The translations under genes were made by a program, and so were the position numbers. Source: Flavobacteriales bacterium (GTDB taxonomy: Bacteria; Bacteroidota; Bacteroidia; Flavobacteriales_D; Sanyastnellaceae). From it: a stretch of 57,593 nucleotides of DNA. The notes under the pieces are model-generated. The model worked only from the letters and a program-made list of their open reading frames with translations, did no database searches and was not told where the DNA came from. This document shows, one piece after another, positions 9,282 through 34,530 of this stretch; position 1 is the first letter of the stretch; each line of letters starts with the position of its first letter. The stretch covers positions 1-57,593 of the forward strand of contig CANHWU010000001.1 of NCBI GenBank assembly GCA_947464415.1, read 5' to 3'.

Positions 9282-12200
9282 TTACCGGCCAATCAGAAAT
9301 TGTGCCGTTTTTGTTACAGTGTTATTTTGTATCACGATTGTATATAAACCATTAGACCAGTTGGATAGTTCAATTCGTTGATTCGGTTGGTCATTTACAA
9401 GGCTGGATAGGAGTTTACTGTTTGCATCATAGATGAGAATTCTTGCTGGAAGGTGGGTGTTTTCAATGATCAAGTAATCTTGCACTGGATTGGGAAAAAT
9501 AAGAACATTACTTTCCAGCTCCAGCAAGCCGGGGGCTATATAATCTGTCGTAATGGTGGCCTGACCTTGGCAGCCAAATTCGGTAATGGCTATCATTTGG
9601 TATTGAATGCCCAGATCTGCAGATAGACTCAAGGTATTATCAAATAATGGCTGATCCGTGTTATCAATGCTCCATTGGGTAATCCATTGACTTATTCCAT
9701 TATTGCATGAGACAATATTATTGGTCTCTGAAAGAACAGGTTGCGGAGTAGGATGAATGGTTACTGCAGTATTCATTGTTCCTTGTGTGGAGGTAGTGTT
9801 GGAGGTACATACCATCGAAATTTGCTGATTACCTTCTGTTCCATAAATATGTTCCGTTGGATTGCTCACCCAGTTATCATTTGTGCCATCTCCCCAATTT
9901 ATTTGGCAACCCATCCAATCTAGGCCATCCGTGAGATTGTGGAGAGTGATCGTATCAAATTGACAGATAGAGTCATTTTCGATTTCAAAATAAGGTTGTA
10001 TAATCCAAAGTGAATCAGAGCTACTTGTGCAACCGTTTTGAGCCATGACATTCAATTGATATACTCCGTTAGAATAATTGTTGCCGTTCCAAATGTTCCA
10101 ATGGTAATTGACTGCATCCACGATGTCGTTATTGTATAGATTCCAGTCAAAGCTCAGAGAGTTGGAACAGTTTGTACAGATTACTTCTGGGAAAGTATAA
10201 GTAATTTCAGGAATTATGGGAGATTGAAGAATCAAAATGGAATCAGTGAAGTAACCGGTGGAATATTCGTTGTAACAAATCATGGAAAGTGAATATTGGC
10301 TCTCCAGGCCATACAAATGGGTAAGAAGGTTGGTATTGGCCGTTTGATTAGATCCATCTCCCCAAAGCATAGAGCAGTTAAAATCATTATAGTTTTGGGT
10401 GATGTTCTCTAGTAAGACGGAATCTGCAGAACAAGAGGCGTCATTCATCAGAATGAACAAAGGTTGAATCACAAAAATGGAGTCACTGAAGACGGTGCAA
10501 TTGAAGTTGTTCGTGGAAGATATTTGATACCAACCATTATCATAATTGAACCCGTTGAAATTGTAATGAGTAGCACCATTAGACGAGCTTATCGGGGTAT
10601 TTTCAAGATACCATTGATAAGTATTCATGCCATTATAATTGTCACATTGCACCTCGCCGATTTCATAATGAACCAATGGTTTTTCTGGAATGGGATTCAT
10701 TTCAATTTCCAATGAAAAAGAACCTTGAGTATAAGGGTTGGTACAACTGAGTTCAATGTTATAATTCAGGGTGTCACCAAATACATGGTAATTGTTCACG
10801 CTCATTAATGTTTCAGAGGTTCCGTCTCCCCAATTGATATTGCAGTTGCTCAGCCAATGGGAGGTTTCATCCAGCAACCAAGTGGTGTCTCCTGGACAGA
10901 CGGTAGGATCGATGATATTGAAATAAGGCTGCAGAATTGGAAGTGAATCTGAATGCTGAGTACAACCTTCAATATTGGTGGTAGACAATGAATACCACCC
11001 ATTTTGGTAGGATCCATTGAAAAGAGTATAAAGTTGAGAATTATTCTCATTAGGCAATGGAGTATTGTTGTATAACCATTGGTATTGTTGCAGAATATTG
11101 AAATTTTGACAATCCAATTGTCCAAAAGTGTAAGTAATGACTGGAACGTCTGGAATAGGATCAGTGGCTATCGTCACAAAGTAGGAGCCGCTGGTGAACA
11201 TATTCTGGCAGAAAAGTTCAATTTCATAGGTGCCGCTATCAGCGAAAATATGATAATTGAACTCATTAGAGATCACTTCTGAATACCCATCACCCCAAAT
11301 TATTTCACATGTGTTCTCCCAGAATTGTGTTGTGTTTTGAAGAGTTGTACTATCTCCGGGACAAACATGGATGTCAGCAATTACAAATGAAGGCTGAAGG
11401 ATGGGTAATGAGTCAGAAAGAGTAGTACAATTGTCGGGGTTGGTAGCCGCTGCCATGTACCAGCCATTGTTGAAAGCGCCGTTGGAGCTTATATTGATTA
11501 CCGGGCTATTTTGATCGAAGAGTAGGTCTTGATTCAGATACCATTGGTAAGTATTTTGATTTTCAAAATTGCTTATTTCCAGATCAGGCATAGTGTAGAT
11601 AAGTGAGGGAGCTGCTGGAGCTACAAAAACAAATATAGAGTCCTCTAGTGAGTAGCTTTGGCCAAACCCGGAGCATTCCATCAAAATAATGTATTGGCCG
11701 CTCATCGAGTAAGCGTGATTGACATCATAGTTTGAAGTACCGTCCCCCCAATGAATCAAGCAATTCATGCCGGGTTCTTGGTCCGTGTAATCCGTAAATC
11801 CAATATTGATATTAGGACAGATGCTATCCACTGAGATTTGAAAATAGGGTTCTGCGACAAAGATGGAATCGGATTGCACCAGACACCCTACACCATTACT
11901 TGCGATGACATTGTACCAGCCATTGGAGTACGAAGCTCCATTCCAAATATCGATACTAAGATCTTGCTCGTTCAGAATATTCAAGTGGTTATTTTCCCAC
12001 TGATAATTGATGTTTGCTTCCGGATTGTTGATTGTGATTATCCCGGAATCATAGTCAAGGATGGGAATTAATGGTATTTCATTGACAAGGATATTGGAGA
12101 TGTATTGTCCAGTATCTAAATTATTGAAACAAACTAATTCAATATCATAGCTACCAGGAATAAGGTAGGAATGATCCAAGGCGACTGGAGTTATTACTGA

Positions 12201-15200
12201 CTCTATGCTACCATCTCCCCAATTGATAGAGCAACTGATTCCGGATAGATTGATGGAGTTGATATTCGCTTGAGCTGATTCATTCTGGCAGATGGTGTTG
12301 GATTGCAAACTGAAAAAGGGTTGAACGACAAATTCAGTATTGGAGATTGAAGAGCATCCTAGATCAGAGGAGGAGGTCAATTGGAAATCTCCAGAAAGAA
12401 ATTGACCTGTTTGAAGGTTGTTGAAACTGGTGTTGTTTGCGTTTTGGATATTGGCATTGTTCAATGTCCATTGATAGTTTACCCCTCCCGTGCAATTGGC
12501 GCAAGAAAGTACTCCATTGTTTTCTGTAATTATTGGCGTCAAAGGCGTAGCATTGACAATGATGTTATTTAATTGTGCAGAGGAGGGAAATCCATCAAAA
12601 TAATAATTGTAAGTGATACTAAAGTTTCCGGGTTCTGAAAAAGTGTAATTGAAAGATGATCCACAATTATAAATGGTGTCACCCGAAGAAAAAATGAATT
12701 CACAGACAGACTCGGGGTATGCAACCGTTTGATTGATAACATTGATGGTCAAGGGGTCACATCCCTCAGTGGTAGCGACGAACAAAGAGGCCTCTAAGTA
12801 CATGCAGCTTCCATCGTTGAAATTGGTCGTAGGATCAAAGTTAATAGCGGCTACATCAGTACAACCGTAATACAGACACGATCCATCATCTTGATTGGCC
12901 AAACTGGAGAAATTATTTGCAATGGTATCTGTGCATCCCAGATAAATACAACTTCCGTCGTTAACGGTTGCAGTGGAATCATAATTCGCTGCCACAGTAT
13001 CCGTGCATCCCAAATAAAAACAAGATCCATCATCAATGGTGGCTGAGCTGTTGTAATTACCCGCCAATGTATCCGTGCACCCTTCGATTTGGCAGGAACC
13101 GTCATTCACCGTGGCGGTTGGGTCGAAATTGACCGCGGTAGAATCAGTACATCCGAGGTAAAAACATGAGCTGTCACTGATATTGGCATTGCTATCGAAA
13201 TTATCCGCGTTGGGATCAATACATCCTGGATAGAGACACGATCCATCAGGGATACTGGCAATAGGATTAAAATTTTGCGCTAGCGAATCAGTGCAGCCCT
13301 CATAAACGCATGTTCCATCATCTTGATTGGCAATATTACTGAAGTTGAAAGCGGTTGTGTCAGTGCAACCTAGGTATATGCATGTGCTATCCTCTTGATT
13401 AGCGTTTGGATTAAAGTTGTCAGCTATAACATCGGTACATCCAAGAATTATGCATGACGAATCAGGAGTGTTGGCCGTAGGATCGAAGTTGATGGCGATA
13501 GGATTGGTACAACCTAAGAAAATACAGGGTACAATTTGAGTGGCCAAGGGGTTGTAATTATCGGCGAGTGGATCTAAACAACCAATGTATACACAAGAAC
13601 CATCATCCCAATTCCATACGGAGCTATAATTGTCATATTGTTCTTGAGTACAACCAGGAAAATCACATGACCCGTCATTAACATTTGCCAGAGGGTTGTA
13701 ATTCATAGCAGAGTCAACGGTACAACCGGGTATTTGGTTTTGATTGAAAGTTTGCACTCGAACTTGAGGAATCCTCAGTAAATAATACAAGTCTGATTCG
13801 TCGGGAAAATTCAGATAAGTAGTATTTTCGGGGGCTGCTCCGCTTCTCGCTACATAAAATGGCTGGCCTAAAGATATATTTCTAACCATGGCGGCAACAC
13901 AACCGTCAAAGGGATTGATTTCTGCATCTCCGGTTTCGGGATTAGTGTCGTCAGGATAATTAAGTGTGGCTTGATTGGTATAAACAGGATTGATGAGGGG
14001 AAGGGTAATCATTTTTTCTTCTCCTAGCCCATTGATGTCAGCTAAATTCACTGTGTAGGTTTCCGTGGAGGCTAATATAGAATCCATCGTAGGGATATAG
14101 ATATGACCTTGAATAACTGTACCAGGTAGGGTTCCTTCTGCAATTCCTACTTGAATATTGGCTATCCTCTTTCCATTGCCATATGTAAAGCAATATATAT
14201 TTCCGATCTCGGTGGTGGTTGTATTGGGATAAATGGAATTAGCATTGTAAAGATTATCGGCGGGCCCTTCGTCACGCGCGTAGGTGTATGGGGTAATATC
14301 AAAGTCTAAAGTATCGAAATTATTAGTGAGGTCTTCGTCTGTCTCTGCTTGTGAAATTTCGAAAGTGACCTCATAATTGCCTACACCGTCATTGATGATA
14401 TCGGATGCATTCGTTAAAGTGGTATTTTGTCCAAACCCTAGAGTATTTTGAGATATGGACTGATCATAGATGGGTACTCCATTTTTTAATATTTTGTTTT
14501 GAAGTACAATATTATTTTGGGAGTTAGTGCCGAGGTTGGAAATGGCACAATTGGGCACGGCGGTAGGAAGAAAATTAAGAGGATACTGGTCATACATCAT
14601 ATTAGATACAAAATTGACCGTTGGATCGTATGCGGTGAATTGCGCATTGGAGATGGCAATGTTATTGGCAGAAGGAGAGTATAAAGAAATGTCATCAATG
14701 CTCCATGAATAGTAAAAGCCGTCGAATAAAAATTTGAATTGAACATTGGATTGACCGGCAGCTAGAGCAGTTATGTAGGCACTTTTCCACTCACTGTTGG
14801 GGCCTGTGTACCCATTGCTTTGAGTGAGTGAACTTATTTCTTGCCAAGTACCCCCCCCATTCGTGGAGATTGGAACATACATGGTACCTACATAATTTCT
14901 AAGCTGTTGGTTGAAGGTGATGTATACTTCTGAAACTGAACTTAGGTCTATACTATTGGTGATCATCCATGCTGAATGGGGTCCAGGATCTGGCCCACTT
15001 CCGATGTTTCCGCAAGTTGTGCTTGGATCATCCCAAAAATTAGAATCGAAAATCATAAAACCATTGCTAGAGGAGGGAGATTGAAGAGCAACGGTTCCTG
15101 CGCTGCATGAACCTCTTGATCCGATATTGTTATCAGGAATGGTGTTAGGTCCCCTGTATTCCCATTGTCCGATCCCAGAGGTACTTCCAGTTGTCCATCC

Positions 15201-15347
15201 TGAAGGTAATCCATTTGCAAAGTCCCAAGAGGTTATAGGAGTGCCTAGCACTTGGCTGAAAATGTTTTCTGCCAATAGACACAAGGAAATAAATACAATG
15301 AGTCTTTTCAAAGGTTCTGCTTTTTCCAAAAATACATTTTTTTTCAT
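9282..15347 (-). CDS. Giant (2021 aa) modular cell-surface/adhesin-like T9SS cargo protein
   Basis: Signal peptide, then an N-terminal MAM/choice-of-anchor-J-like region (SWDFANGLPSGWTT...). This is followed by 13 x 24-aa GCTD..A.NF....A..DDGSC.Y repeats and 7 modules carrying PKD-like WGDG and YQW...NGWY...GC motifs. The C-terminal type-A T9SS CTD reads IFPNPVQDYLII...GLYTIVIQNNTVTKTAQFLIGR. Confidence 0.85.
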   Translation of the reverse strand: MKKNVFLEKAEPLKRLIVFISLCLLAENIFSQVLGTPITSWDFANGLPSGWTTGSTSGIGQWEYRGPNTIPDNNIGSRGSCSAGTVALQSPSSSNGFMIFDSNFWDDPSTTCGNIGSGPDPGPHSAWMITNSIDLSSVSEVYITFNQQLRNYVGTMYVPISTNGGGTWQEISSLTQSNGYTGPNSEWKSAYITALAAGQSNVQFKFLFDGFYYSWSIDDISLYSPSANNIAISNAQFTAYDPTVNFVSNMMYDQYPLNFLPTAVPNCAISNLGTNSQNNIVLQNKILKNGVPIYDQSISQNTLGFGQNTTLTNASDIINDGVGNYEVTFEISQAETDEDLTNNFDTLDFDITPYTYARDEGPADNLYNANSIYPNTTTTEIGNIYCFTYGNGKRIANIQVGIAEGTLPGTVIQGHIYIPTMDSILASTETYTVNLADINGLGEEKMITLPLINPVYTNQATLNYPDDTNPETGDAEINPFDGCVAAMVRNISLGQPFYVARSGAAPENTTYLNFPDESDLYYLLRIPQVRVQTFNQNQIPGCTVDSAMNYNPLANVNDGSCDFPGCTQEQYDNYSSVWNWDDGSCVYIGCLDPLADNYNPLATQIVPCIFLGCTNPIAINFDPTANTPDSSCIILGCTDVIADNFNPNANQEDSTCIYLGCTDTTAFNFSNIANQDDGTCVYEGCTDSLAQNFNPIASIPDGSCLYPGCIDPNADNFDSNANISDSSCFYLGCTDSTAVNFDPTATVNDGSCQIEGCTDTLAGNYNSSATIDDGSCFYLGCTDTVAANYDSTATVNDGSCIYLGCTDTIANNFSSLANQDDGSCLYYGCTDVAAINFDPTTNFNDGSCMYLEASLFVATTEGCDPLTINVINQTVAYPESVCEFIFSSGDTIYNCGSSFNYTFSEPGNFSITYNYYFDGFPSSAQLNNIIVNATPLTPIITENNGVLSCANCTGGVNYQWTLNNANIQNANNTSFNNLQTGQFLSGDFQLTSSSDLGCSSISNTEFVVQPFFSLQSNTICQNESAQANINSINLSGISCSINWGDGSIESVITPVALDHSYLIPGSYDIELVCFNNLDTGQYISNILVNEIPLIPILDYDSGIITINNPEANINYQWENNHLNILNEQDLSIDIWNGASYSNGWYNVIASNGVGCLVQSDSIFVAEPYFQISVDSICPNINIGFTDYTDQEPGMNCLIHWGDGTSNYDVNHAYSMSGQYIILMECSGFGQSYSLEDSIFVFVAPAAPSLIYTMPDLEISNFENQNTYQWYLNQDLLFDQNSPVINISSNGAFNNGWYMAAATNPDNCTTLSDSLPILQPSFVIADIHVCPGDSTTLQNTTQFWENTCEIIWGDGYSEVISNEFNYHIFADSGTYEIELFCQNMFTSGSYFVTIATDPIPDVPVITYTFGQLDCQNFNILQQYQWLYNNTPLPNENNSQLYTLFNGSYQNGWYSLSTTNIEGCTQHSDSLPILQPYFNIIDPTVCPGDTTWLLDETSHWLSNCNINWGDGTSETLMSVNNYHVFGDTLNYNIELSCTNPYTQGSFSLEIEMNPIPEKPLVHYEIGEVQCDNYNGMNTYQWYLENTPISSSNGATHYNFNGFNYDNGWYQISSTNNFNCTVFSDSIFVIQPLFILMNDASCSADSVLLENITQNYNDFNCSMLWGDGSNQTANTNLLTHLYGLESQYSLSMICYNEYSTGYFTDSILILQSPIIPEITYTFPEVICTNCSNSLSFDWNLYNNDIVDAVNYHWNIWNGNNYSNGVYQLNVMAQNGCTSSSDSLWIIQPYFEIENDSICQFDTITLHNLTDGLDWMGCQINWGDGTNDNWVSNPTEHIYGTEGNQQISMVCTSNTTSTQGTMNTAVTIHPTPQPVLSETNNIVSCNNGISQWITQWSIDNTDQPLFDNTLSLSADLGIQYQMIAITEFGCQGQATITTDYIAPGLLELESNVLIFPNPVQDYLIIENTHLPARILIYDANSKLLSSLVNDQPNQRIELSNWSNGLYTIVIQNNTVTKTAQFLIGR
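9528..12791 (-). repeat. Coding tandem repeat: 7 bipartite modules of ~151-157 aa (PKD-like + Ig-like)
   Basis: The W of WGDG falls at aa 1043, 1200, 1351, 1506, 1662 and 1818, with a degenerate first copy near aa 887. YQW-type motifs alternate with these at aa ~958, 1115, 1267, 1422, 1577, 1734 and 1890. Confidence 0.75.
12798..13730 (-). repeat. Coding tandem repeat: 13 units of 72 nt (24 aa; one unit is 23 aa), two Cys per unit
   Basis: Covers aa 540..850 of the giant protein. The GC dipeptide recurs at residues 541, 565, 589, 612, 636, 660, 684, 708, 732, 756, 780, 804 and 828. Unit consensus is (L/P)GCTDxxAxNFdpxAxxxDGSCxY. Confidence 0.85.
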
Positions 15348-19206: not shown

Positions 19207-19680
19207 ATGGAAAATTATACCCTCTTCAAGGCCAAAATAAAGGCCTATTGCGATAAGGCAGAACGATGTCATCATGATGTTAGAAATAAATTATTTCTTT
19301 GGAAAGTTCCTGCTGAGAGGCATGGCGAGATTATAGCGGATTTAATCACTCAGAATTTGCTGAATGAAGAGCGGTACGCTCTCGCATTTGTGCATGATCA
19401 CCATGCATTCAGGAGGTGGGGAAAAGAAAAAATTAGACAAGGTTTGAAGAAAAAGCAAGTTTCCTCTTTCTTGATTGAGTTTGCTCTCAAAAGTGTACAA
19501 TTTGAGAGTGAAGAGGAGAATTTACGCACCTGCGCTGAAAAAAAATGGACGAGTTTGAAAGATGAAAATCAACATAAAAGAAGAGCTAAATTAATTCGTT
19601 ATCTCTACGGAAGAGGATTTGATATGGAGGCTATTCAAAAGGCAGTGAGGAGGGTAACGGGAGATGCTGAATTTGAATAA
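19207..19680 (+). CDS. recX: Regulatory protein RecX
   Basis: 157 aa. YCDKAERCHHDVRNKL start and repeated three-helix pattern (LNEERYALAFVHD..., LIRYLYGRGF) typical of RecX. Confidence 0.8.
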   Translation: MENYTLFKAKIKAYCDKAERCHHDVRNKLFLWKVPAERHGEIIADLITQNLLNEERYALAFVHDHHAFRRWGKEKIRQGLKKKQVSSFLIEFALKSVQFESEEENLRTCAEKKWTSLKDENQHKRRAKLIRYLYGRGFDMEAIQKAVRRVTGDAEFE

Positions 19681-24845: not shown

Positions 24846-24863
24846 TCTCTTGTAATGTTTCCA

Positions 24864-24871
24864 CAAAGTTA
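24864..24871 (-). promoter_or_regulatory. Candidate -7 promoter box (TAACTTTG on the minus strand) for the hldD-queD-folE operon
   Basis: Plus strand reads CAAAGTTA. The motif is 19 nt upstream of ATG 24845. Confidence 0.35.
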
Positions 24872-24959
24872 GGGGTTATTGGGAGAAAAAAATGGCTAAT
24901 TAGCGTTAATCCTCCACAGTCTATTTTGGAAAAGCACTGTTCGAAAATAAATTTTGGCT

Positions 24960-24976
24960 TTGTAAATCCATTACAA
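24960..24976. promoter_or_regulatory. Perfect inverted repeat TTGTAA-N5-TTACAA upstream of the SRAP/polymerase operon (candidate operator)
   Basis: TTGTAA (24960..24965), ATCCA spacer, TTACAA (24971..24976). It ends 23 nt before the SRAP ATG. Confidence 0.25.
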
Positions 24977-24998
24977 TCATAAAGTATTACTTTGCAAT

Positions 24999-25811
24999 AT
25001 GTGCGGACGCTACATTGTCGTTACTAAAATCAAGGAAATCGAGAAGAAATGGGGGTTAAAGGCCCCGAGTGGTTTTTCTTTTGAACCTTCAGCGAATTTA
25101 TCGCCGGGTCAAAAGGGAATGGTCGTCACTCAGCAAGCTCCCAAGGAAATTCAGTTAATGCGATTTGGTATGACACCGCACTGGTCGAAGGACGGTAAAA
25201 TGTTCATCAATGCTCGAAGTGAAGGCGATCATAATTCTGATAATGATGCTCAATATCGCGGAGCCAAGGGGATATTGGAGAAGCCAAGTTTCAGAAAGCC
25301 GATTCGCTCCCAGCGATGCTGGGTGATTGCGGATGGATTTATTGAGGGGCCAGAAAAAGTTGGGTTGAACCAGCCGTTTTGCGTTTATCCTAGAAAGGGC
25401 GATGGACCGATGATTTTTGGGGGTATTTGGGATACTTATCAAAAGGGGGAGACGGTAGTGGAGTCCTTTGCTATAGTGACCACCGCGGCCAATGAGGTCT
25501 TAAGACAAATTGGTCATCATCGTTGTCCGTTGATTTTAGACAAGGAATCGGCGATGGTGTGGATCGATGAGCAATCTACTTTGAGCGATGTGACGGCATG
25601 TATGAAAGTGCCTAAGGCGGAATGGTTAAACGCATATCCCATTGACTCCGCCATCAAGTCTTCTCAAATGAATGGAAAAGATTTGCTCAAACCCATTGGT
25701 GATAGGGTAATCAAGGAGTTTGAATACGAGGTCTACCAAGATATTGAGATGTTTGGAATGGGAGAAACAAGAGGGAGAAAGAGAAGGGATGATCAATTGA
25801 GTTTGTTCTAA
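24999..25811 (+). CDS. SOS-response-associated peptidase (SRAP / YedK / HMCES family) with C-terminal extension ending QLSLF
   Basis: 270 aa. MCGRY start (Cys2), FINARSE, CWVIADGF, TTAAN and GHHRCPLIL motifs. A ~45-aa basic/acidic tail ends in RKRRDDQLSLF. Confidence 0.9.
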   Translation: MCGRYIVVTKIKEIEKKWGLKAPSGFSFEPSANLSPGQKGMVVTQQAPKEIQLMRFGMTPHWSKDGKMFINARSEGDHNSDNDAQYRGAKGILEKPSFRKPIRSQRCWVIADGFIEGPEKVGLNQPFCVYPRKGDGPMIFGGIWDTYQKGETVVESFAIVTTAANEVLRQIGHHRCPLILDKESAMVWIDEQSTLSDVTACMKVPKAEWLNAYPIDSAIKSSQMNGKDLLKPIGDRVIKEFEYEVYQDIEMFGMGETRGRKRRDDQLSLF

Positions 25812-25817
25812 AGTGTC

Positions 25818-28817
25818 ATGATTGGACATAGTTATTTCTCTTTGCGATATGGGGTGTTGGCACCCAAGGCAGTATGCGAAACTTTCCGAGAGTTGGGTTT
25901 CCCGGTGGGAATGTTGGCAGATGTAAATGCTACTTCCGCTATTTGGGATGTTTGGCGATGGTCTAAAAAAGAGGAGTATCCTGTGTTGACGGGAGTGGAT
26001 GTAAAAAATGGAGTGCGAACCGTCTATGTGGCCATTCCTCATGGAGAAGCTGGTTGGTTGGAAGTGAATGAGTGGTTGAGTTATCATTTGCAATCCCAAC
26101 GGCCATTTCCGGAACGGGCGCCGGAATGGAGGCAAGTGACGGTGATATATCCCATAGAAACCATACGGGATTGGCCCATGGAAGTGATGAAGGAACATGA
26201 ATGGGTGGGAATAGGGCACTTGGATATTCATAAATGGCGCATTTCAAGATGGAATAAATATCCGCGCTGCATGGCTTGTCCCGTTTTTAGTTTTCGACAT
26301 CAAAGAGATTTTAATATTCACCGATTGCTGAGGGCAGTGGATAGCAATGCTCTGTTGAGTAAACTGTCTGTTTTGGATCATGCTGGAATGAATGAAAAAT
26401 TTATCTCATTTTCAGATCTGCAATTGGCATTTTCCGAGTATCCTGAGTTGTTAGAAAATACAACAAGAATTTTTCAAGAAAATTTCTTGCTTCAGCAGCA
26501 AACGGATTTGTCCAGTATGAAAAATCAGCAAGTGTATGGAACAGATGGGGAGACTGATTTTGCTTTGTTGAAGGATTTGTGCTGGGAGGGAATGTCCTAT
26601 CGATATCCCCATGAAGATTTGCAAAAAAAAGACTCGGTTATTGTCAGCCGGTTGCAAAAGGAATTGGAGTTGATCCGGGAGAAGTCATTCGTGGCTTATT
26701 TCCTGATCAATTGGGACATTACTTCCTACGCCAGAAGCAAAGGTTATTTTTATGTAGGAAGGGGCAGTGGAGCCAATAGCATTGTAGCCTATTTACTCAG
26801 AATTACAGATGTGGATCCCATTGAGTTGGATTTATATTTCGAAAGATTTATCAATCTATATCGCCAGAATCCTCCTGATTTTGATATAGATTTTTCTTGG
26901 ACTGACAGGGAGGATATGACTCAATACATATTTTCTCGATTTCGAAATGTAACTTTATTGGGCGCCTATAATACTTTTCAATATCGCGCTGCGGTGAGGG
27001 AAATTGGGAAGGTATTTGGTCTTCCAAAGGAGGACATTGATATGTTATCCGATGGAAAGTATCAGGTGAATCAGTTAGATGAGTTGCAGCAATTGACTTT
27101 GCGGTATGCAGGATTGATTCAAGATTTTCCCAATGCGCTGGCCATTCATGCCGCTGGAATTTTGATTACACAAAAATCCATTCATCATTATACAGCCACT
27201 TTTTTACCTCCCAAGGGATTTCCGACCACGCAATTTGATATGCTCGTGGCGGAGGATATTGGGATTTACAAGTTTGATATTTTGTCCCAACGAGGATTGG
27301 GTAAAATCAAAGAATGCATGGAGATTATCGGTTATAATCAGCCTCATCGATTGACTTTTGATATTCATCATATTGCTTTGTTTAAAAGGGATGAAGCCGT
27401 GAAAAACTTGATCCGATCGGCGCAGGCCATCGGATGTTTTTATGTGGAATCACCGGCCATGCGTATGTTATTAACGAAGCTGCAGGTGGATGATTATTTG
27501 GGATTAGTAGCAGCGAGTTCTGTTATTCGACCCGGTGTTTCAAAAAGTGGCATGATGCGGGAGTTTATCTTGCGTCAACGCTTTCCTGAAAGAAGAAAAA
27601 CCGCTCATCCCGTTTTATTGGAGATCATGCCAGAGACCTATGGGGTGATGGTGTATCAAGAGGATGTGATCAAAGTAGCGCACTTTTTTGGTGGTTTGAG
27701 TTTGGCAGAGGCCGATGCTTTGAGAAGAGGCATGAGTGGGAAGTTTAGAGGAAGGGAGGAGTTTGAAAAAGCCAGGGATTCATTTATTGAGAATGCATTG
27801 TCCAAAGGAAATGAACTGTCGGATATTATTGAGATTTGGCGCCAGATCGAGAGTTTTGCTGGCTATGCATTTGCAAAAGGTCATTCTGCTTCCTATGCCG
27901 TGGAGAGTTTTCAAAGTTTGTATCTCAAAGCTTATTTTCCGTTGGAATATATGGTGGCCACCATCAATAACGGAGGAGGATTTTATTCCGTGGAATTTTA
28001 TGTACAAGAGGCCAGAAGAAATGGTGGAATCATTGAAGCACCTTGTTTACAGAATAGCAGCGCAGAAACTGTTATTCGCGATAAGGTGATTTATTTGGGA
28101 TTAGGAATGATACGAGACTTGGAGCATCCTGTCATTGAAAGGATTCTTCAGTCCAAGAGGCAGGAAGGTGATTTTACAGATTGGGATGATTTTTTGGAGC
28201 GCGTGAGCATTGGTTTAGAGCAATGCGTTTTGTTGATCAGAATCGGTGCTTTTCGATTTACAGGGTTCAATAAAAAGGAATTATTATGGAAAGCGCAGTT
28301 GCATTTTATGCAAACTCGGAACGCCATTTCTTCCTCTCTTTTTGGAGTGGAGAAGAAGCATTTTCAGATTCCAGATTTACCGCATTATGCATTGGAGGAC
28401 GCCTATGACGAGATGGAGATTTTGGGATTTCCTCTGTGTTCTCCTTTTGATTTGATAGAAGAGGCTCAGAGGAATTTCATTGATGCAGAAATGTTGCCAC
28501 AGCAATTGGGAAAGGTGGTACAAGGTATTGTGTATTTTATTACATGTAAACCCACGCGCACAAGCAAAGGGGAGCGTATGTATTTTGGAAATTTTTTAGA
28601 TGTCAAAGGAGGGTTTGTGGATACGGCTCATTTTCCGATTCCTCAAAAACGAAACATGGATTGGCGAGGACAAGGGGTATATTGGATCAAGGGAAAGGTA
28701 ATGGAGGAATTTGGAGCCTGGAGCATAGAGGTGGACGAGATGAGAAAATTGGCCTATATGGACGATCCGCGATACAGTGAATTAAGAGCTGCAGAAAAAT
28801 CGAGATTGAAAAAGTGA
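25818..28817 (+). CDS. dnaE2: Error-prone DnaE2-type DNA polymerase III alpha-subunit homologue
   Basis: 999 aa. Degenerate PHP N-terminus (MIGHSYFSLRYGV; LADVN). Palm motifs GRGSGANSIVAYLLRITDVDP and PDFDIDF. Finger region AIGCFYVESPAMR and VIRPGV. YQEDV, HhH-like LSLAEADALRRGMSGK, and an OB-like C-terminus. Confidence 0.85.
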   Translation: MIGHSYFSLRYGVLAPKAVCETFRELGFPVGMLADVNATSAIWDVWRWSKKEEYPVLTGVDVKNGVRTVYVAIPHGEAGWLEVNEWLSYHLQSQRPFPERAPEWRQVTVIYPIETIRDWPMEVMKEHEWVGIGHLDIHKWRISRWNKYPRCMACPVFSFRHQRDFNIHRLLRAVDSNALLSKLSVLDHAGMNEKFISFSDLQLAFSEYPELLENTTRIFQENFLLQQQTDLSSMKNQQVYGTDGETDFALLKDLCWEGMSYRYPHEDLQKKDSVIVSRLQKELELIREKSFVAYFLINWDITSYARSKGYFYVGRGSGANSIVAYLLRITDVDPIELDLYFERFINLYRQNPPDFDIDFSWTDREDMTQYIFSRFRNVTLLGAYNTFQYRAAVREIGKVFGLPKEDIDMLSDGKYQVNQLDELQQLTLRYAGLIQDFPNALAIHAAGILITQKSIHHYTATFLPPKGFPTTQFDMLVAEDIGIYKFDILSQRGLGKIKECMEIIGYNQPHRLTFDIHHIALFKRDEAVKNLIRSAQAIGCFYVESPAMRMLLTKLQVDDYLGLVAASSVIRPGVSKSGMMREFILRQRFPERRKTAHPVLLEIMPETYGVMVYQEDVIKVAHFFGGLSLAEADALRRGMSGKFRGREEFEKARDSFIENALSKGNELSDIIEIWRQIESFAGYAFAKGHSASYAVESFQSLYLKAYFPLEYMVATINNGGGFYSVEFYVQEARRNGGIIEAPCLQNSSAETVIRDKVIYLGLGMIRDLEHPVIERILQSKRQEGDFTDWDDFLERVSIGLEQCVLLIRIGAFRFTGFNKKELLWKAQLHFMQTRNAISSSLFGVEKKHFQIPDLPHYALEDAYDEMEILGFPLCSPFDLIEEAQRNFIDAEMLPQQLGKVVQGIVYFITCKPTRTSKGERMYFGNFLDVKGGFVDTAHFPIPQKRNMDWRGQGVYWIKGKVMEEFGAWSIEVDEMRKLAYMDDPRYSELRAAEKSRLKK

Positions 28818-28836: not shown

Positions 28837-31167
28837 ATGAATGTGAAGCGGAGAGGTATTGTTTGGGTCCTTTTGATGTTTGTATGTGCTCCTTTTATTG
28901 CGCAAGAGTCTGCTCGGCTTTGTGTAATAGACGAGGAGCGTTTGTCGGCTCTTCCAGGTGTACTCATTTACTGCAATGATAAGCCTGTGGGAGTGTCAAA
29001 TGTGGAAGGGTGTTGGAATAAAAGTATGGGACAACCACAAGATCAATGGCGATTGAAGATGATGGGATTTGTGGATACGGTATTTTTTTGGAAAGAGGCT
29101 GTGGATTTGACAATTAAAATGCGACCTCGGGATTTGGAATCCTCCACACTTACCATCAGTACCCATTTATACGGGAGGCCATTGCAGGAAAATACGCAGT
29201 CCATTGAAAGCATTGATGGTAGGGATATTATCCGAAAGCGAAATGTGGATGCAGCTGCGGCACTAGAGCGTGTTCCAGGTGTTACCATCATCGATGGTCA
29301 GGCGAGTTTTAGAGGGGGTAGTGGTTATTCTTACGGTGCGGGATCGCGAGTGATGTTGGTGATTGATGACATGCCTTTATTGACGGCAGACAGAAATGAT
29401 ATCAAGTGGAATTATGTAGCCACAGAAATGATTGATAAGATGGAGGTGGTAAAGGGAGCCTCTTCCGTGCAATATGGATCCTCTGCGCTCAATGGGGTAG
29501 TGCATGTCAGAACCATGGCGCCTCGTGAGAAGCCGCATCTGATGTTTCAAACTTATACTACCAGTTTTTCAAAGCCTTCCGTAGAGGGTGCTACTTGGTG
29601 GAATCAAGAAGATACCCCTAATCCGCGACAAGGGGGGATGTTGCTTCCTACTCAAAGTAATTTTCCTTATCAAGCAGGTTATTTGATTCGATATGGCCAG
29701 CGCACGGGCAATATTCTATGGATTGTGGGAGGTAGTTTGCATCAATCACGGGGTTGGATCAAAAAGGAAAAGGAGAATCGGATGCGGTGGACACTCAAGA
29801 CTACTTATGTTTTTCCAAAAAATTCCCGGTGGAGGTTGGGCTTGAATGCGCAAGTGATGCGTCAAAATCAAAGCTCTGTATTGTTTTGGGCCAATGATAC
29901 TACGGGTGCATTTTTGCCCAATGGGGATGGCGTTGTAGTAAATTACAACGACTTATGGATGAATATCGATCCTTGGACTTCCTATTACGATAAGTTTGGC
30001 AATCATCACCAACTCAAAACACGCTTTTATGCCTCGTATTTTCCAAGTACCAGGAGTTTCAGACCGGGCCTTCATTTGCGTCACGGAACCTATTCATTTC
30101 ACAGGAAAACGAGTTTTGGTTTAGATTGGATTACGGGTGTAAATGCCAATTATTTTGCCTTTGGAGATGCTGCTTTTGGAGGACGGCATGTGGGGAATTT
30201 TATTGGTGCGTTCACACAAGCGGATTGGTCATGGCGCAATTGGCACTTCTCAGGTGGAGCCCGTATGGAGTCGTTTCAGGTGGATAGTATCAAAGTAAAA
30301 GCCATTCCAGTGGGTAGGTTGGGATTGACCTATTCTATCAATGAGCATCATATTTTAAGAGCATCTTATGTGGAGGGATTCAGATTTCCTTCTCCTGCGG
30401 AGCGTTATGTTAGATACACCATTGATCAGATAAATATTTACGCCAATCCTGATGTAGCTCCAGAGCGGGGATGGAATGTGGATCTCGGTTATAAGGGCAT
30501 TTATGAAAAAGATCAGTTCCAGGCTACCTGGGATGCGGTATTGTTCTTGACTCGATACCGTGATTTGATTGAATTTACTTTTGGTAGATGGGGATTGCCA
30601 ACAGATCCGATGTTTGGTTTAGGATACAAAAGTGTGAATGTCAGTAACGCTCAAGTGGGAGGAGTAGAACTCAGTGGTAATGCCAATGGTAAAATTCATG
30701 GTTGGGAAATTCATGGATTGATGGGGTACACCTATTTACTTCCTGTTGATTTGGGAGTATATCCAGGAGGAAATAATCTCCTTCATTACGCAAGTGATTT
30801 GGTAACGGAATTTAGCAGCAAAGATTCTGCGGATTATTTGTTGCGATACCGCTTCAAGCATATGGTCAAGGCCAATGTGGATATTCAAAAGGGGAAATGG
30901 GGAGTGGGAGTGGGGTATCGATATTACAGTTTCATGCAAAAAATAGATCCTGTACTAGAGTGGTTTGTTGACGGATTGGCTCATTATCGTCAGACACAGA
31001 CACATGGAACGAATATTTGGGATGCTCGTTTTTTTTATCAGGCTACAGACAAGATGAGTGCTAGTGTGCAGGTACAAAATGTGTTTAATGCCTTTTATGC
31101 AACCAGGCCCGCCAAACCAGATGCCCCGCGAAATATATCGTTGCAATTGACTTGGAGAATAGACTAG
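28837..31167 (+). CDS. TonB-dependent receptor
   Basis: 776 aa with a signal peptide. Plug motifs ALERVPGVTIIDG, GGSGYSYGAGSRVMLVIDDMPL and VVKGASSVQYGSSALNGVVHVRT, then a beta-barrel. Paralogue of 39735..42155. Confidence 0.85.
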   Translation: MNVKRRGIVWVLLMFVCAPFIAQESARLCVIDEERLSALPGVLIYCNDKPVGVSNVEGCWNKSMGQPQDQWRLKMMGFVDTVFFWKEAVDLTIKMRPRDLESSTLTISTHLYGRPLQENTQSIESIDGRDIIRKRNVDAAAALERVPGVTIIDGQASFRGGSGYSYGAGSRVMLVIDDMPLLTADRNDIKWNYVATEMIDKMEVVKGASSVQYGSSALNGVVHVRTMAPREKPHLMFQTYTTSFSKPSVEGATWWNQEDTPNPRQGGMLLPTQSNFPYQAGYLIRYGQRTGNILWIVGGSLHQSRGWIKKEKENRMRWTLKTTYVFPKNSRWRLGLNAQVMRQNQSSVLFWANDTTGAFLPNGDGVVVNYNDLWMNIDPWTSYYDKFGNHHQLKTRFYASYFPSTRSFRPGLHLRHGTYSFHRKTSFGLDWITGVNANYFAFGDAAFGGRHVGNFIGAFTQADWSWRNWHFSGGARMESFQVDSIKVKAIPVGRLGLTYSINEHHILRASYVEGFRFPSPAERYVRYTIDQINIYANPDVAPERGWNVDLGYKGIYEKDQFQATWDAVLFLTRYRDLIEFTFGRWGLPTDPMFGLGYKSVNVSNAQVGGVELSGNANGKIHGWEIHGLMGYTYLLPVDLGVYPGGNNLLHYASDLVTEFSSKDSADYLLRYRFKHMVKANVDIQKGKWGVGVGYRYYSFMQKIDPVLEWFVDGLAHYRQTQTHGTNIWDARFFYQATDKMSASVQVQNVFNAFYATRPAKPDAPRNISLQLTWRID

Positions 31168-31764: not shown

Positions 31765-34530
31765 TTATCTTACCACAAAACGGGTGATATCTGTTTTGTT
31801 TTCTGAATGGTTTACGCGCACTGTATAAATTCCAGCGGGAAGGGTTGCTGTTGGTATTTCACAGATAACGTTGTTGATGACAGTATTCAATACTGATTGT
31901 CCCGCATTATTAAAAATTTGAATGCGTTGCATGGTATTCCCCTCTGCAGATATGATCACAGAGTGAGGATGGTGTTGGACATTGAGTGAAAATGGAATTT
32001 CATCTTTTAGTATTTCTGGATCTGGACATTGTCCATTTGTACAATTTTGTAAAAGAAATGCGGTGCCGTGGAAGCTACCATTGAAGGGGATTCTTACTAG
32101 GTCACCGTTTTCAATTTTTTGATGATACCCAGGATTAACAAGGATATGTTCTTGTTCTCTTATGATATACACAGGCTGAGAGACAAGATAGTTGAGTAAT
32201 GTCCATTGATGATCTTCATCTAAATGATTAATTTTTACATAAGCATATTCAAAAGTCTCTTGATCATTGGATAAGTCCAGGTACACGGGAATCACGTTTT
32301 CATTTTCCAAGGATATGGAGGTTGACATCAACATGATTTTTTCTTCAGATAGAAGAGACAGATTGAATTTATTATTGGTGAGATCATACAAATCAATTAC
32401 ATCCATTCCTGCATCGAAATTGGGGCTGGAGGAAAGGTCATTCGAAATGGTAGAAACATCACGAAGTGAAAGTTGATTATCTAAAAGCTGGAGGTCTACG
32501 GCAGGTGCATACGATGATCGCTCAAATAATTTTGGATTACATCTATTGACTTTGGCATTTTCCGTAAAGGTTAAACTTTGATTGGTGGTAGAGGCATGTA
32601 CAAAAAAGCTTTGGCTGTGAGGAATGAATTTTCCAATACCATCCGGGTAGGACGTTGTACTATTGAATGCTCCATTGTTGGGGTTGTAAAAAAGATAATT
32701 GTTAGTTGCATAGTCAAAAACATAATACGCCCCAATATCCGAACTAGCCGCTTCAACGATATCCCAATTGATTTCGCTGGGATAAGGGTTGGCCAATAAA
32801 TTTCTTCCAAAAGATTCGATTTCACCAGAAGGAGTGTAAGTCATGGGGATATTTACGGTTCCTTTCATGAAAAATCCAGAAGGGTTGACCGTAAGAGCAG
32901 GTGAATTGGCATATACATTAAGCCCCAATTGAGGATTGATGACTCCTGTGCTCGGATTGATTACGGTAAATCCAACATTTGACCCTCCCACTAATGTTTC
33001 GTTATACCATTTAATGCTGTTAGAAGTCATGGTAATAGTGGGGTAGGTAATTCCATTGACAGTTGCTGATGACCAAGCAGCGTTGGGGCTAAGACCTGTT
33101 GTCAGAGCAGCATTGGAATACAAAGGACAAGATAAAAATAACCAGCTTGCTCGTGACTCTGAAGGGATGTATCGCTGCAGGGTAATGGGCCCCACGACAT
33201 CAGAGTTTGCACCAATACTTTGTATGGAACCAGAGCAGCTCGCATTCGATAACAGGGCTAAACTTCCTCCTGTTCCATTGGTAGTGAGGGTGCCCGCTGT
33301 GGGTATAACGGCAGCTGTGACAAAGACTGGAGCGTTGAGGGTAACACCAGCAGCATTGTTGATTTGAAGTTCCATGAACCGTGTTCCTGAAGAGCCTCCG
33401 ATTGTTTGAGCGTTCGTTCCACCCATGATGACACGACAACCTGCCGTACAACAAGTGGGGTCAAAATTACCATTGAAAGAAGCGGAGTTGTTGTTGTTGG
33501 TCCAATTTCCAGTGAGGGTGAGGGTTTGAGCAGTACTGCCTGCTGTGAGGGTCCCACCAGCATTTAAAGTTACATTAGCCAAGGCAAAGCTTCCGTCAAT
33601 AGTGATGTTGTGAGAAATTACTAACGAACTTGAGGAATTGAATATGGGAGTGGTGGGCGAACCGCCGTTGGTCAATGACCAAGTGTTGGCTCCGTTCAAA
33701 TTCCCGTTGTTGATGCTGTAATAGGTGGCGGCGGCCGCCACTTGGTTGAAACTAAAATTATCGAGGTACATGTTTCCTGCTAGCGTAGAAGATGCGGTAG
33801 CATTGGTGGGCCAACGGAGTGAAGCTCCCACAAACGAGCAGTTCGTATGAGTGTTATCGGTGACTGGATTGGTAATGACCTCATAGGTTCCATCATTATT
33901 GAAATCGGCATAAACCGTCCAAGCAGCGCTGGCGTTTCTGATGACTTTTATTCCAATGGTGTTATAGCCAGCTGTACTATTCCCATAATTGCCACCGTAA
34001 GAAGGGCCGGGAACGGTCACTAAATCCGAGGCTGCACTATTGGTAATCCGCATCAATTTGAGTGGTCGAGCAGAGGCGGTGCTTGAAACAGGATTAACAC
34101 CAATGGCATATCCATTGATTCCGTTGAGGCTGGGGACGGATATATCCACCACGTTCGATGTATTAGGCATTCTCATATTGGTACCATTGGCGGCAAGAAC
34201 AATCCAAAATTTTTGGCTAGCACTCACCCCTTTTCCAGAGGTTTTAAGCTTAAACTCCCATGTCGTAGTGGCACCGGAAAGGTTAGAAGTGGCGGCGGGT
34301 ATGGCTCTTGATACATTGGAGAAATTTGTACTCCCAGAAGTAGTCCCCGTGCCATTATGTTTCAATGACTTTGTTCCTTCTATGGGCGTTGTAGTGGAAG
34401 CGGTCCACTCCCCATTCACCCCGGCAGTCCAAGCGTTTACACTTTCAAAATCATCCAATATTTGTCCAAATGTCAATGTGGAAATTAATACTGTACAGAT
34501 CAAGGAAATCAATTGAGGTAATGCTCTCAT
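31765..34530 (-). CDS. Large secreted T9SS cargo protein of unknown function
   Basis: 921 aa with a signal peptide. Thr/Asn/Ser/Gly-rich beta-type sequence and an N-terminal concanavalin/LamG-like feel (ILDDFESVNAWTAG...). C-terminal CTD is IQIFNNAGQSVL...AGIYTVRVNHSENKTDITRFVVR. Confidence 0.7.
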   Translation of the reverse strand: MRALPQLISLICTVLISTLTFGQILDDFESVNAWTAGVNGEWTASTTTPIEGTKSLKHNGTGTTSGSTNFSNVSRAIPAATSNLSGATTTWEFKLKTSGKGVSASQKFWIVLAANGTNMRMPNTSNVVDISVPSLNGINGYAIGVNPVSSTASARPLKLMRITNSAASDLVTVPGPSYGGNYGNSTAGYNTIGIKVIRNASAAWTVYADFNNDGTYEVITNPVTDNTHTNCSFVGASLRWPTNATASSTLAGNMYLDNFSFNQVAAAATYYSINNGNLNGANTWSLTNGGSPTTPIFNSSSSLVISHNITIDGSFALANVTLNAGGTLTAGSTAQTLTLTGNWTNNNNSASFNGNFDPTCCTAGCRVIMGGTNAQTIGGSSGTRFMELQINNAAGVTLNAPVFVTAAVIPTAGTLTTNGTGGSLALLSNASCSGSIQSIGANSDVVGPITLQRYIPSESRASWLFLSCPLYSNAALTTGLSPNAAWSSATVNGITYPTITMTSNSIKWYNETLVGGSNVGFTVINPSTGVINPQLGLNVYANSPALTVNPSGFFMKGTVNIPMTYTPSGEIESFGRNLLANPYPSEINWDIVEAASSDIGAYYVFDYATNNYLFYNPNNGAFNSTTSYPDGIGKFIPHSQSFFVHASTTNQSLTFTENAKVNRCNPKLFERSSYAPAVDLQLLDNQLSLRDVSTISNDLSSSPNFDAGMDVIDLYDLTNNKFNLSLLSEEKIMLMSTSISLENENVIPVYLDLSNDQETFEYAYVKINHLDEDHQWTLLNYLVSQPVYIIREQEHILVNPGYHQKIENGDLVRIPFNGSFHGTAFLLQNCTNGQCPDPEILKDEIPFSLNVQHHPHSVIISAEGNTMQRIQIFNNAGQSVLNTVINNVICEIPTATLPAGIYTVRVNHSENKTDITRFVVR

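Follow-up and report, generated by a model that had tools for sequence, protein, structure and literature searches.

Can a protein of the SRAP family, whose known members crosslink themselves to abasic (AP) sites, take the place of the usual adaptor of an error-prone polymerase? The question is raised by two adjoining genes, for a SRAP protein of the YedK/HMCES type and a C-family DNA polymerase, in a stretch of DNA from an uncultured Flavobacteriales bacterium that only metagenomes have revealed (the window: 57,593 nucleotides (nt), contig CANHWU010000001.1 of assembly GCA_947464415.1, positions 1-57,593). An earlier note, made from the sequence alone, had described the pair as an operon that wires an AP-site sensor to a DnaE2-type polymerase in the absence of ImuA and ImuB, and had proposed that the SRAP protein replaces ImuB in lesion recognition and as clamp adaptor. 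The window, annotated with Pfam and NCBIfam profiles and by tblastn with Y-family polymerase (PolY) and S24 repressor queries, was examined together with a further 10 kb of the source contig, a metagenome scaffold of 71.9 kb, which makes ca. 68 kb in total.

The locus is a reduced variant of a damage-tolerance cassette that is already known and not a new kind of system. In its full form this cassette comprises an S24 LexA-like repressor, an active PolY with clamp and RecA-NT motifs (the latter a segment that matches the RecA N-terminus), a SRAP protein, an accessory polymerase of the DnaE2B group and a SplB-like radical-SAM enzyme; in the window lineage only SRAP and DnaE2B remain together, in one operon. 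We think it probable, although far from assured, that the window holds a trimmed version of the damage-inducible mutagenesis cassette of Bacteroidota, in which the SRAP protein would act as a clamp-tethered accessory in the same pathway as the polymerase rather than as a structural replacement for ImuB. The two genes are as follows, with dN/dS denoting the ratio of nonsynonymous to synonymous substitution rates:

24999..25811, + strand: SRAP (YedK/HMCES-type) gene, 270 amino acids, ATG start; identified by PF02586, AlphaFold2 (AF2), Foldseek and invariant residues, dN/dS ca. 0.06
25818..28817, + strand: accessory C-family DNA polymerase gene (DnaE2B), 999 amino acids, ATG start; identified by Pfam/NCBIfam, the match to a DnaE2B exemplar and AF2, dN/dS 0.07-0.09

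The coordinates given in the earlier note for both reading frames are exact, the SRAP stop codon ending at 25811 and the polymerase ATG lying at 25818 in the list of open reading frames (ORFs), which leaves a spacer of 6 nt. The same order on the same strand, SRAP before polymerase with a spacer of 2-60 nt, recurs in 17 independent loci, and the adjacency is therefore beyond chance. Both genes are under strong purifying selection: in comparisons with two related loci (L092 and L002; related loci are cited by number throughout), dN is 0.16-0.34, dS, where it can be estimated, is saturated (>2.5), and dN/dS is 0.06-0.09 for both genes. The operonic link between SRAP and polymerase that the note had claimed is thus real, conserved and selected.

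The SRAP protein and the polymerase

The SRAP protein matches PF02586 with 150.4 bits (cut-off 27.1; E 7e-44) over positions 1-213 of the 214 in the profile, and its catalytic residues, Cys2 (MCGRY), N71 (INARSE), E116 (GFIEG) and H173/H174 (GHHRCP), show at least 90% conservation, if not invariance, across 61 homologues. They line up with the active-site motifs of HMCES and YedK, E116 and H173-174 falling on the HMCES motifs ADGFYEW and HHRMP in a profile alignment. The AF2 model, built on 61 homologues, has a mean predicted local distance difference test score (pLDDT) of 88.7, with values above 90 in the core, and its top 21 Foldseek matches are all SRAP structures (E 4.5e-16 to 1.7e-08, HMCES and YedK at ca. 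1e-15). Family profile, conservation and structure matches thus agree with the earlier identification of a SRAP protein with a Cys2 nucleophile (MCGRY) and NARSE and HHRCP motifs. Judged by its sequence, the protein is a complete YedK/HMCES-type enzyme, with all of the residues predicted to be needed for a thiazolidine crosslink to an AP site in single-stranded DNA.

The profile match to E. coli YedK (222 amino acids) ends at about residue 235 of the window protein, beyond which the latter reads EFEYEVYQDIEMFGMGETRGRKRRDDQLSLF up to its stop codon. This tail contains two features:

25719..25808, + strand: SRAP C-terminal extension, residues 241-270, beyond the YedK core, with an EMFGMGE motif and a basic patch (RGRKRR)
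25794..25808, + strand: QLSLF, a canonical beta-clamp-binding pentapeptide (QL[SD]LF) by sequence, at the extreme C-terminus (RKRRDDQLSLF, then the stop codon); clamp binding is predicted

The extension, which is predicted to be disordered (AF2 pLDDT ca. 50), is present in all 120 of the closest SRAP homologues, and its GMG (G253-M254-G255) is invariant in 61 homologues. By signature the tail appears to carry a short linear motif for binding the beta clamp, and it would then parallel the conserved C-terminal PIP box of HMCES, which binds PCNA in a protein whose crosslink suppresses breaks and modulates translesion synthesis (TLS) past AP sites (bioRxiv 10.1101/2021.07.29.454365). The SRAP proteins of the window and its nearest relatives (the six loci of the window clade, defined below) end in QLSLF, QMSLF or QMTLF, and the strict C-terminal form Q[LM][SDT]LF is found in these six proteins only among the 1163 ORFs of at least 150 amino acids from all loci. 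In the looser form Qxx[LMIV]F, the motif lies no more than 3 residues from the C-terminus in 42 of the 120 closest SRAP homologues; the SRAP proteins of three-gene cassettes, in which PolY is also present, carry QGSLF, QQSLF or QQTLF, and a stand-alone SRAP protein (L089) carries QRRLFED. The searchable literature yielded no description of a clamp motif in bacterial SRAP proteins, and the analysis thus flags a C-terminal beta-clamp motif in a subfamily of them.

Two readings of the tail were considered and rejected. The clamp motif is not an adaptation to the loss of PolY, because the tail is found throughout the subfamily, stand-alone genes included, and the motif itself occurs in three-gene cassettes and stand-alone SRAP proteins too. 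Nor does the tail contain a significant RecA-NT motif: the segment IEMFGMGE resembles RecA IEKQFGKGS, but when 100 SRAP tails were compared by hhalign with the N-terminus of E. coli RecA and with PolY C-termini, the similarity amounted to E ca. 0.4 over 5-8 columns only. Other conserved endings also follow the invariant GMG within the SRAP subfamily, namely DFLEFEL and YDPEWPWG (homologues P0161-P0238; L084 and L086), and these may be alternative partner-binding motifs.

The polymerase consists of a reduced, inactive PHP domain followed by palm, thumb and fingers, (HhH)2 and an OB fold. Pfam recognizes DNA_pol3_alpha, finger and HHH_6 domains and finds no PHP match, the metal ligands of the PHP domain being mostly replaced across the whole polymerase family. 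The chain ends after the OB fold (strands at 900-977), and the alignment to the DnaE1 model runs no further than position 1063 of 1146, so that the tau-binding C-terminal domain (CTD) is missing. The AF2 model (pLDDT 82.5, predicted template modelling score 0.76) finds full-length Pol III alpha structures in Foldseek with E 1e-39 to 1e-44. Three sites are relevant here:

26877..26885, + strand: catalytic D354/D356 (PDFDIDF), aligned to E. coli D401/D403 and invariant in 63 homologues
27276-27278, + strand: catalytic D487 (KFDIL), aligned to E. coli D555 and invariant in 63 homologues
28338..28343, + strand: L841-F842 (SSSLFG), a weak, non-canonical clamp-binding motif in a disordered loop between HhH and OB

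In the last of these, the leucine is conserved in 112 and the phenylalanine in 116 of 118 homologues, without conservation at the Q position. Secondary structure is absent from the loop (832-857), where pLDDT falls below 50 at 835-839, and alignment together with residue counting places its LF at the position of QADMF 920-924 in E. coli alpha; a weak internal clamp motif of this kind is typical of DnaE2 (PMC3919608).

Domain composition, the alignment of the catalytic triad and the loss of PHP ligands all bear out the earlier description of a 999-residue Pol III alpha homologue with a catalytic PDFDIDF and a degenerate PHP N-terminus. The palm sequence GRGSGANS, however, is not the DnaE2-type signature for which it had been taken, since GRGSGAGS occupies this place in E. 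coli DnaE1. Nor do the NCBIfam models settle the class: the 'error-prone DNA polymerase' model NF004225 gives 388 bits, short of its cut-off of 939, the DnaE1 model gives 455 bits, and both scores are far below the equivalog cut-offs. The class emerges instead from the relatives of the polymerase. A search returns a large Bacteroidota family of ca. 975-1070 amino acids, several members of which are named 'error-prone DNA polymerase' by JGI, and the window polymerase is 50-56% identical to the PolY-linked DnaE2B enzymes of Flavobacteriales and Cytophagales, among which it nests in a neighbour-joining (NJ) tree. The N-terminus of the DnaE2B exemplar ADV50501 (Cellulophaga algicola) aligns to it without gaps (31% identity over 129 amino acids, E 9e-21), and the N-terminal sequence of this exemplar is the consensus of the family found here. 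By these sequence criteria the polymerase is an accessory C-family enzyme of the Bacteroidota DnaE2B group that is predicted to lack a PHP proofreading site.

This assignment changes the partner that is to be expected. DnaE2 has been divided into DnaE2A, DnaE2B and DnaE2X, of which DnaE2A alone is linked to ImuA/ImuB (Timinskas et al. 2026, PMC12926913). In Bacteroidetes, DnaE2B has an active PolY plus RecA as its partners and is present in genomes that lack imuA/imuB, and for 'a few DnaE2Bs' no partner was found (PMC12926913). The earlier note had measured the locus against ImuA and ImuB as the partners normally encoded with DnaE2. That baseline was the wrong one, because the polymerase is a member of DnaE2B, a group for which ImuA/ImuB are never the partners; both the published survey (PMC12926913) and the loci of relatives, which carry an active PolY and not ImuB, identify PolY as the regular partner.

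Gene neighbourhoods, inheritance and the promoter region

No Y-family, ImuA/ImuB-like, RecA-like or S24/LexA-like gene was found in the window by Pfam or by tblastn with PolY and S24 queries, and the additional 10 kb of the contig likewise contain no Y-family, ImuA/ImuB-like, RecA-like or S24/LexA-like gene. The absence of imuA, imuB, Y-family and lexA genes that the note had reported for the immediate flanks thus extends over ca. 68 kb. For comparison, one genome per species was scanned with the polymerase, which gave at least 587 loci; the best 80 were kept and mapped for SRAP, PolY and S24, with the following result:

PolY adjacent (before or after the polymerase), no SRAP: 62 loci
PolY-SRAP-polymerase: 6 loci
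SRAP-polymerase, no PolY in at least 2.5 kb of flank: 2 loci
SRAP-polymerase, flank too short to judge PolY: 1 locus
Neither PolY nor SRAP: 4 loci
Flanks too short: 5 loci

Among these best 80 species-level loci, PolY adjoins the polymerase in 68 of the 75 relatives for which this can be determined, and SRAP lies directly upstream of the polymerase in 9. The interpretation of the earlier note is supported in part: the adjacency does recur in relatives, but a Y-family gene is routine there, and six of the 68 loci have it together with SRAP. Because PolY is so regular in relatives and stands beside SRAP in these six loci, SRAP is to be regarded as an add-on to the cassette and not as a general substitute for PolY. 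The PolY of the relatives ends in YQINLF(D/E)D, a QxxLF clamp motif, and the segment next to it matches the RecA N-terminus (hhalign E 1.3e-4), i.e. it is a RecA-NT motif.

The window clade comprises six loci (the window, L001, L002, L004, L091 and L092) whose polymerases are 68-76% identical and which have SRAP-DnaE2B without PolY, none being found within 8-10 kb in L001, L002, L004, L091 and L092. Four of the six (L001, L002, L091 and L092) come from metagenome contigs, in addition to the 80 surveyed loci. This arrangement is kept in all six loci although the upstream neighbours change. In a second, 60% clade (L003 and L024), a divergent HTH_3+S24 repressor is followed by an alpha/beta-hydrolase, SRAP and the polymerase. 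Full five-gene cassettes of the order S24>PolY>SRAP>DnaE2B>radical SAM are present in L087, L088, L033 and L039, and L009 has PolY>SRAP>DnaE2B>radical SAM, with no S24 gene detected. In the NJ tree of polymerases the window clade is monophyletic, as is the window clade together with L003, and PolY-SRAP-polymerase cassettes appear in several deeper branches. This suggests that SRAP already belonged to an older cassette and that PolY was dropped in the window lineage, the direction of change being read from the NJ tree. In agreement with an SOS setting, dinB-dnaE operons and SRAP (COG2135) are both predicted members of the SOS regulon in Bacteroidetes (PMC8565304).

Several further genes accompany the polymerase in relatives. 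The alpha/beta-hydrolase, of ca. 230 amino acids, lies directly upstream of SRAP-polymerase in three PolY-less loci (L003 6472-7167, L024 8225-8914 and L067 1469-2146) and, in L003 and L024, separates SRAP from the divergent S24 repressor; it recurs as an additional cassette member. Immediately after the polymerase, five loci have the radical-SAM (SplB-like) gene (L087 9836-10873, L088, L033 12988-14022, L039 12982-14016 and L009 13042-14085). Genes for a '23S rRNA intervening sequence protein' (23S-IVP), a small four-helix bundle, occur between or beside PolY and DnaE2B in several loci, as ORFs of ca. 120 amino acids in L046, L047, L052 and L054 and at 6876-7337 in L086 (PF05635). Finally, four Flavobacteriaceae loci have a second, distant dnaE homologue, 27-30% identical to the window polymerase, 8-10 kb from DnaE2B (L029 20757-22712, on the minus strand; L037 22031-22942; L038 21861-22934; L044 20792-22918).

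The two genes of the window have been inherited together. Across the 17 loci that have both, SRAP and polymerase distances correlate with r = 0.87, a value that shows joint inheritance and not necessarily contact. At the amino-acid level they are 76% identical to their counterparts in L001, close to the values for the hldD (79%) and TonB receptor (80%) genes next to them; among species-level genomes, the nearest relative has a polymerase with 69% identity. A horizontally transferred island was considered and rejected, as GC content (0.41-0.46) is like that of the flanks and the two genes have diverged from L001 to the same extent as housekeeping genes nearby. The catalytic domains of the window polymerase are 66-68% identical to those of PolY-linked relatives, the same as for a PolY-linked sister lineage; the PHP region is more diverged (30% identity, versus 37% for the PolY-linked sister), and of nine clade-specific replacements at otherwise conserved positions of the polymerase, five lie in residues 51-250. 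Relaxed selection on, or decay of, the polymerase after the loss of PolY is excluded by the equal conservation of the catalytic domains and by a dN/dS below 0.1. As a separate observation, the SRAP and polymerase ORFs of the window share one reading frame, with a stop codon and two further codons in between; L001, L002 and L091 have a common frame as well, L092, L004 and L003 do not. A SRAP-polymerase fusion by stop-codon read-through is conceivable, but it is not a conserved feature.

The region upstream of SRAP contains two short conserved elements:

24960..24976, no strand assigned: perfect palindrome TTGTAA-ATCCA-TTACAA (dyad TTGTA-N7-TACAA), a candidate operator that overlaps the SRAP promoter, 23 nt upstream of the ATG
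24987..24994, + strand: TTACTTTG, a conserved box containing TTTG, 4 nt before the SRAP ATG

The palindrome has no second exact copy in the window. The arms TTGTA and TACAA are identical, and the 7-nt spacer varies, in the window, L001, L092, L002 and L091, and the dyad is degenerate in L004 and L067; four of the five exact occurrences of the dyad that 1.66 Mb of related loci contain lie at SRAP promoters. Conserved arms around a free spacer, lying over a promoter, look like a putative operator. The second element belongs to a block, T(T/A)A(C/A)TTTG, that is conserved in 7 of 7 aligned promoters. It resembles what we take to be the -7 promoter element of Bacteroidota, and, as it stands 4 nt ahead of the ATG, the leader would be very short or missing. 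Related cassettes have S24 repressors at their flanks, and the palindromes in Flavobacteriaceae intergenic regions between divergent S24 and polymerase genes (CTAC(A)...GTAG) are unlike the dyad of the window. Another dyad, TTGTAATGTTTCCACAA at 24850-24866 near the start of hldD, has one mismatch, is not conserved in L001 or L092 and is taken as due to chance. A sigma-70 promoter scan of the window gave the same counts as shuffled sequence and is not informative.

Readings of the two-gene operon

The most economical model for a clamp-tethered SRAP accessory, drawn by analogy, would be protection followed by controlled bypass. The palindrome would be the operator of a damage-responsive repressor encoded elsewhere, and the operon would be derepressed after damage. 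The beta clamp would bring SRAP to stalled primer termini or single-stranded gaps, where SRAP would cap AP sites, as YedK and HMCES do, and so prevent strand breakage and uncontrolled bypass. On the same clamp, DnaE2B would then extend or fill in with low fidelity, by itself or once a PolY encoded at another locus has made the insertion. This sequence of steps is suggested by the HMCES crosslink in Xenopus extracts, which suppresses double-strand breaks, makes TLS slower and biases which nucleotide is inserted (bioRxiv 10.1101/2021.07.29.454365). The clamp-adaptor function that the earlier note had assigned to SRAP gains from the QLSLF tail; the replacement of ImuB is weakened by the co-occurrence of SRAP and PolY, by the presence of the tail throughout the subfamily and by the lack of a RecA-NT motif.

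Several observations weigh against the protection-then-bypass model and the favoured reading from which it is drawn. Most of the DnaE2B cassettes among the best 80 loci have no SRAP, and SRAP genes of the same subfamily, with the tail, are also found on their own (L084 and L089), away from any polymerase and beside an AP endonuclease or DNA-alkylation repair gene; the coupling of SRAP to the polymerase is therefore facultative. The SRAP proteins of L003 and L024 are without the clamp motif. The boxes of the Bacteroidetes SOS regulon under its non-canonical (S24, CI-like) LexA, GGA-N5-TCC as well as CTAA-N5-TTAG (PMC8565304), are absent from the 260 nt upstream of SRAP in the window, L001, L002, L003, L024 and L067, and L004 has one GGA-N5-TCC match, 228 nt upstream of the SRAP ATG. 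The conserved dyad is thus the sole sequence feature that would speak for damage induction, and no repressor gene lies within ca. 68 kb. Also significant is the direction of the vertebrate effect: as the HMCES crosslink slows TLS, SRAP and DnaE2B could, by the same analogy, be antagonists and not sequential partners.

A more far-reaching proposal is that SRAP is a true subunit of a minimal, PolY-independent mutasome, which would capture the lesion covalently, reach the clamp through its tail, dock DnaE2B and so take the adaptor role of PolY or ImuB. The absence of PolY from ca. 68 kb here and from the surroundings of the other five window-clade loci agrees with this proposal, as does the fact that window-clade tails have the most canonical clamp motifs. 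In the sub-tree formed by L067, L012, L003 and the window clade, moreover, SRAP and PolY are mutually exclusive beside the polymerase, and the PHP domain, the docking site of ImuB-C in models of DnaE2A (PMC12926913), is the most diverged part of the window-clade polymerase. An AlphaFold-predicted UmuC-SRAP-like-RecA complex in Planctomycetes offers a precedent for a SRAP-type subunit of a TLS polymerase, and the DnaE2B enzymes left partnerless by the 2026 survey leave room for such a partner. We nevertheless consider the proposal rather unlikely. SRAP and PolY co-occur in six to eight cassettes, the tail and its clamp motif extend to stand-alone SRAP proteins, and L003 and L024, which are also PolY-less in cis, do not have the motif. 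The SRAP tail does not resemble RecA-NT as the PolY C-terminus does (hhalign E ca. 0.4 versus 1.3e-4), joint vertical descent accounts equally well for the correlated distances, and PolY may simply be encoded elsewhere. The polymerase has an LF of its own, nearly invariant and placed in a disordered loop where E. coli alpha carries its internal clamp motif. Doubtful, in our view, is the specific version in which PolY has been lost altogether and SRAP, the beta clamp and DnaE2B form a two-protein mutasome, SRAP marking the AP site, holding the clamp by QLSLF and handing the primer terminus to DnaE2B, possibly through the FGMG/basic segment of the tail or the diverged PHP domain. If this version were true, a crosslinking enzyme would serve a C-family translesion polymerase as the subunit that recognizes the lesion and connects to the clamp.

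At the other extreme, the two genes might merely be co-regulated, with SRAP shielding AP sites on its own, DnaE2B working with a PolY encoded elsewhere and the gene order a remnant of reshuffling; this is possible, but we think it unlikely. The cassette is certainly fluid: PolY stands before or after the polymerase, S24 is divergent or co-directional, and the abhydrolase, radical-SAM and 23S-IVP genes come and go. SRAP occurs alone as well as beside many unrelated TLS polymerases (Pol V, DinB, ImuABC and PolB2; PMC3765255; PMC11791011), and in the window an unrelated TonB receptor gene is seemingly in the same transcription unit. Against mere co-regulation, the close spacing and the SRAP>polymerase order hold in all 17 of 17 same-strand adjacent loci despite changing flanks and saturated dS, and the recurrence of SRAP beside TLS polymerases of four families points to a functional rather than a historical link. 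Should co-regulation be all there is, the locus would be one more case of SRAP riding with damage-inducible polymerase cassettes, as known since 2013. The SRAP adjacency would be uninformative on TLS if the 999-residue protein were the replicative DnaE or a decaying orphan, an idea to which we give hardly any credence. The higher score of the DnaE1 model (455 versus 388 bits) and the lack of a second dnaE in the window would fit a replicase, but both scores fall far under the equivalog cut-offs, the tau-binding CTD and PHP ligands are missing, and the protein is 50-56% identical to polymerases in S24/PolY SOS cassettes. Four related loci have a second dnaE homologue (27-30% identical) within 10 kb, and DnaE2-type enzymes never have a tau-binding CTD and never occur as the only dnaE (Timinskas et al. 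2014, PMC3919608); decay is excluded by a dN/dS of 0.07-0.09 and the invariant catalytic residues.

Returning to the trimmed-cassette reading, the closest known system is the Bacteroidetes DnaE2B-PolY-RecA module (PMC12926913; exemplar ADV50500/ADV50501), which is alike in polymerase family, reduced inactive PHP domain, length and lack of ImuA/ImuB. In the relatives of the window it is also alike in its SOS-type neighbourhood (S24 repressor) and in a PolY with QxxLF followed by RecA-NT. The window clade differs in having no PolY in or near the operon and SRAP directly upstream of the polymerase instead, a SRAP-DnaE2B type that is absent from the 11 module types of that survey. Compared with ImuA-ImuB-DnaE2 (ImuABC) of Proteobacteria and Actinobacteria, the window shares an accessory, proofreading-deficient, CTD-less C-family polymerase and a partner with a strong beta-clamp motif, but it lacks imuA/imuB, its polymerase is DnaE2B rather than DnaE2A and scores below the NCBIfam error-prone cut-off, and its accessory is a predicted active AP-site crosslinking enzyme without RecA-NT or ImuB-C elements, not an inactive Y-family scaffold. 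SRAP genes in SOS/TLS neighbourhoods (PMC3765255) and the UmuC-SRAP-like-RecA arrangement (PMC12926913) likewise place SRAP in an operon with a mutagenic polymerase; the window operon differs in comprising SRAP and a C-family polymerase alone, with a clamp-binding tail, by motif, at the SRAP C-terminus.

Human and Xenopus HMCES share with the window protein the SRAP fold, the Cys2/Glu/His residues and a disordered C-terminal tail with a sliding-clamp motif (PIP and PCNA versus QLSLF and beta), and functional interplay with TLS at AP sites, a feature of HMCES, would have its window counterpart by analogy. Unlike in HMCES, the clamp motif of the window protein is of the bacterial type, the gene is linked to a specific polymerase, and the tail adds the conserved FGMG and basic patch. 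E. coli YedK is alike in its SRAP core and active-site residues; it has, however, neither tail nor clamp motif, and its gene is not known to lie beside a polymerase.

Much of this was already known. SRAP genes in the neighbourhood of SOS and TLS polymerase genes, which the earlier note had mentioned with reserve, were reported in 2013 (Aravind, Anand & Iyer, PMC3765255), and DnaE2B without ImuA/ImuB as well as SRAP-like proteins, predicted as PolY subunits in Planctomycetes, were described in 2026 (PMC12926913). For a conserved SRAP-DnaE2B operon without PolY, and for PolY-SRAP-DnaE2B(-SplB) as a recurrent cassette type, no description was found in the searchable literature. SRAP is thereby a candidate partner for the 'orphan' DnaE2B polymerases of the 2026 survey. 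If SRAP and DnaE2B do cooperate on the clamp, they would be a genetically hard-wired bacterial counterpart of the vertebrate HMCES-PCNA-TLS interplay, and a simple two-gene system in which to ask whether the SRAP crosslink blocks, directs or primes translesion synthesis.

Flanking genes and other features of the window

The genes that flank the operon are those named in the earlier note, as profile matches confirm. Upstream lies the divergent gene for ADP-heptose epimerase, hldD (TIGR02197, 372 bits versus a cut-off of 275), and downstream:

28837..31167, + strand: TonB-dependent receptor gene (profile annotation), starting 19 nt past the polymerase stop

The ORF of hldD was called from a TTG at 24866, but the ATG at 24845 is where the Rossmann N-terminus MIIVTGAAGF starts, and the true hldD-SRAP intergenic region is probably 24846-24998. 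No terminator-like site was found between the SRAP, polymerase and TonB receptor genes, in a scan whose counts equal those of shuffled sequence and which is thus uninformative. The TonB receptor gene is probably co-transcribed with the polymerase but is not considered a functional part of the module. SRAP-polymerase-TonB receptor is also the order in L001, L002, L091 and L092, and the receptor gene is not present at the other SRAP-polymerase loci. The order SRAP-polymerase-TonB receptor-(pth) is kept throughout the window clade, and an outer-membrane receptor may thus share a transcript with a DNA-damage operon.

The sole other DNA-metabolism gene in the window is recX, which encodes a RecA regulator and lies at 19207-19680, ca. 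5 kb upstream of the operon, with the same placement in L001. No structured RNAs or tRNAs were found in the window. Five window proteins carry C-terminal sorting domains of the type IX secretion system (T9SS), encoded at 9282-15347 (-), 31765-34530 (-), 42285-45452 (+), 6377-7987 (+) and 52270-53076 (-); the longest has 2021 amino acids, and the organism is thus a T9SS-bearing member of the Bacteroidota.

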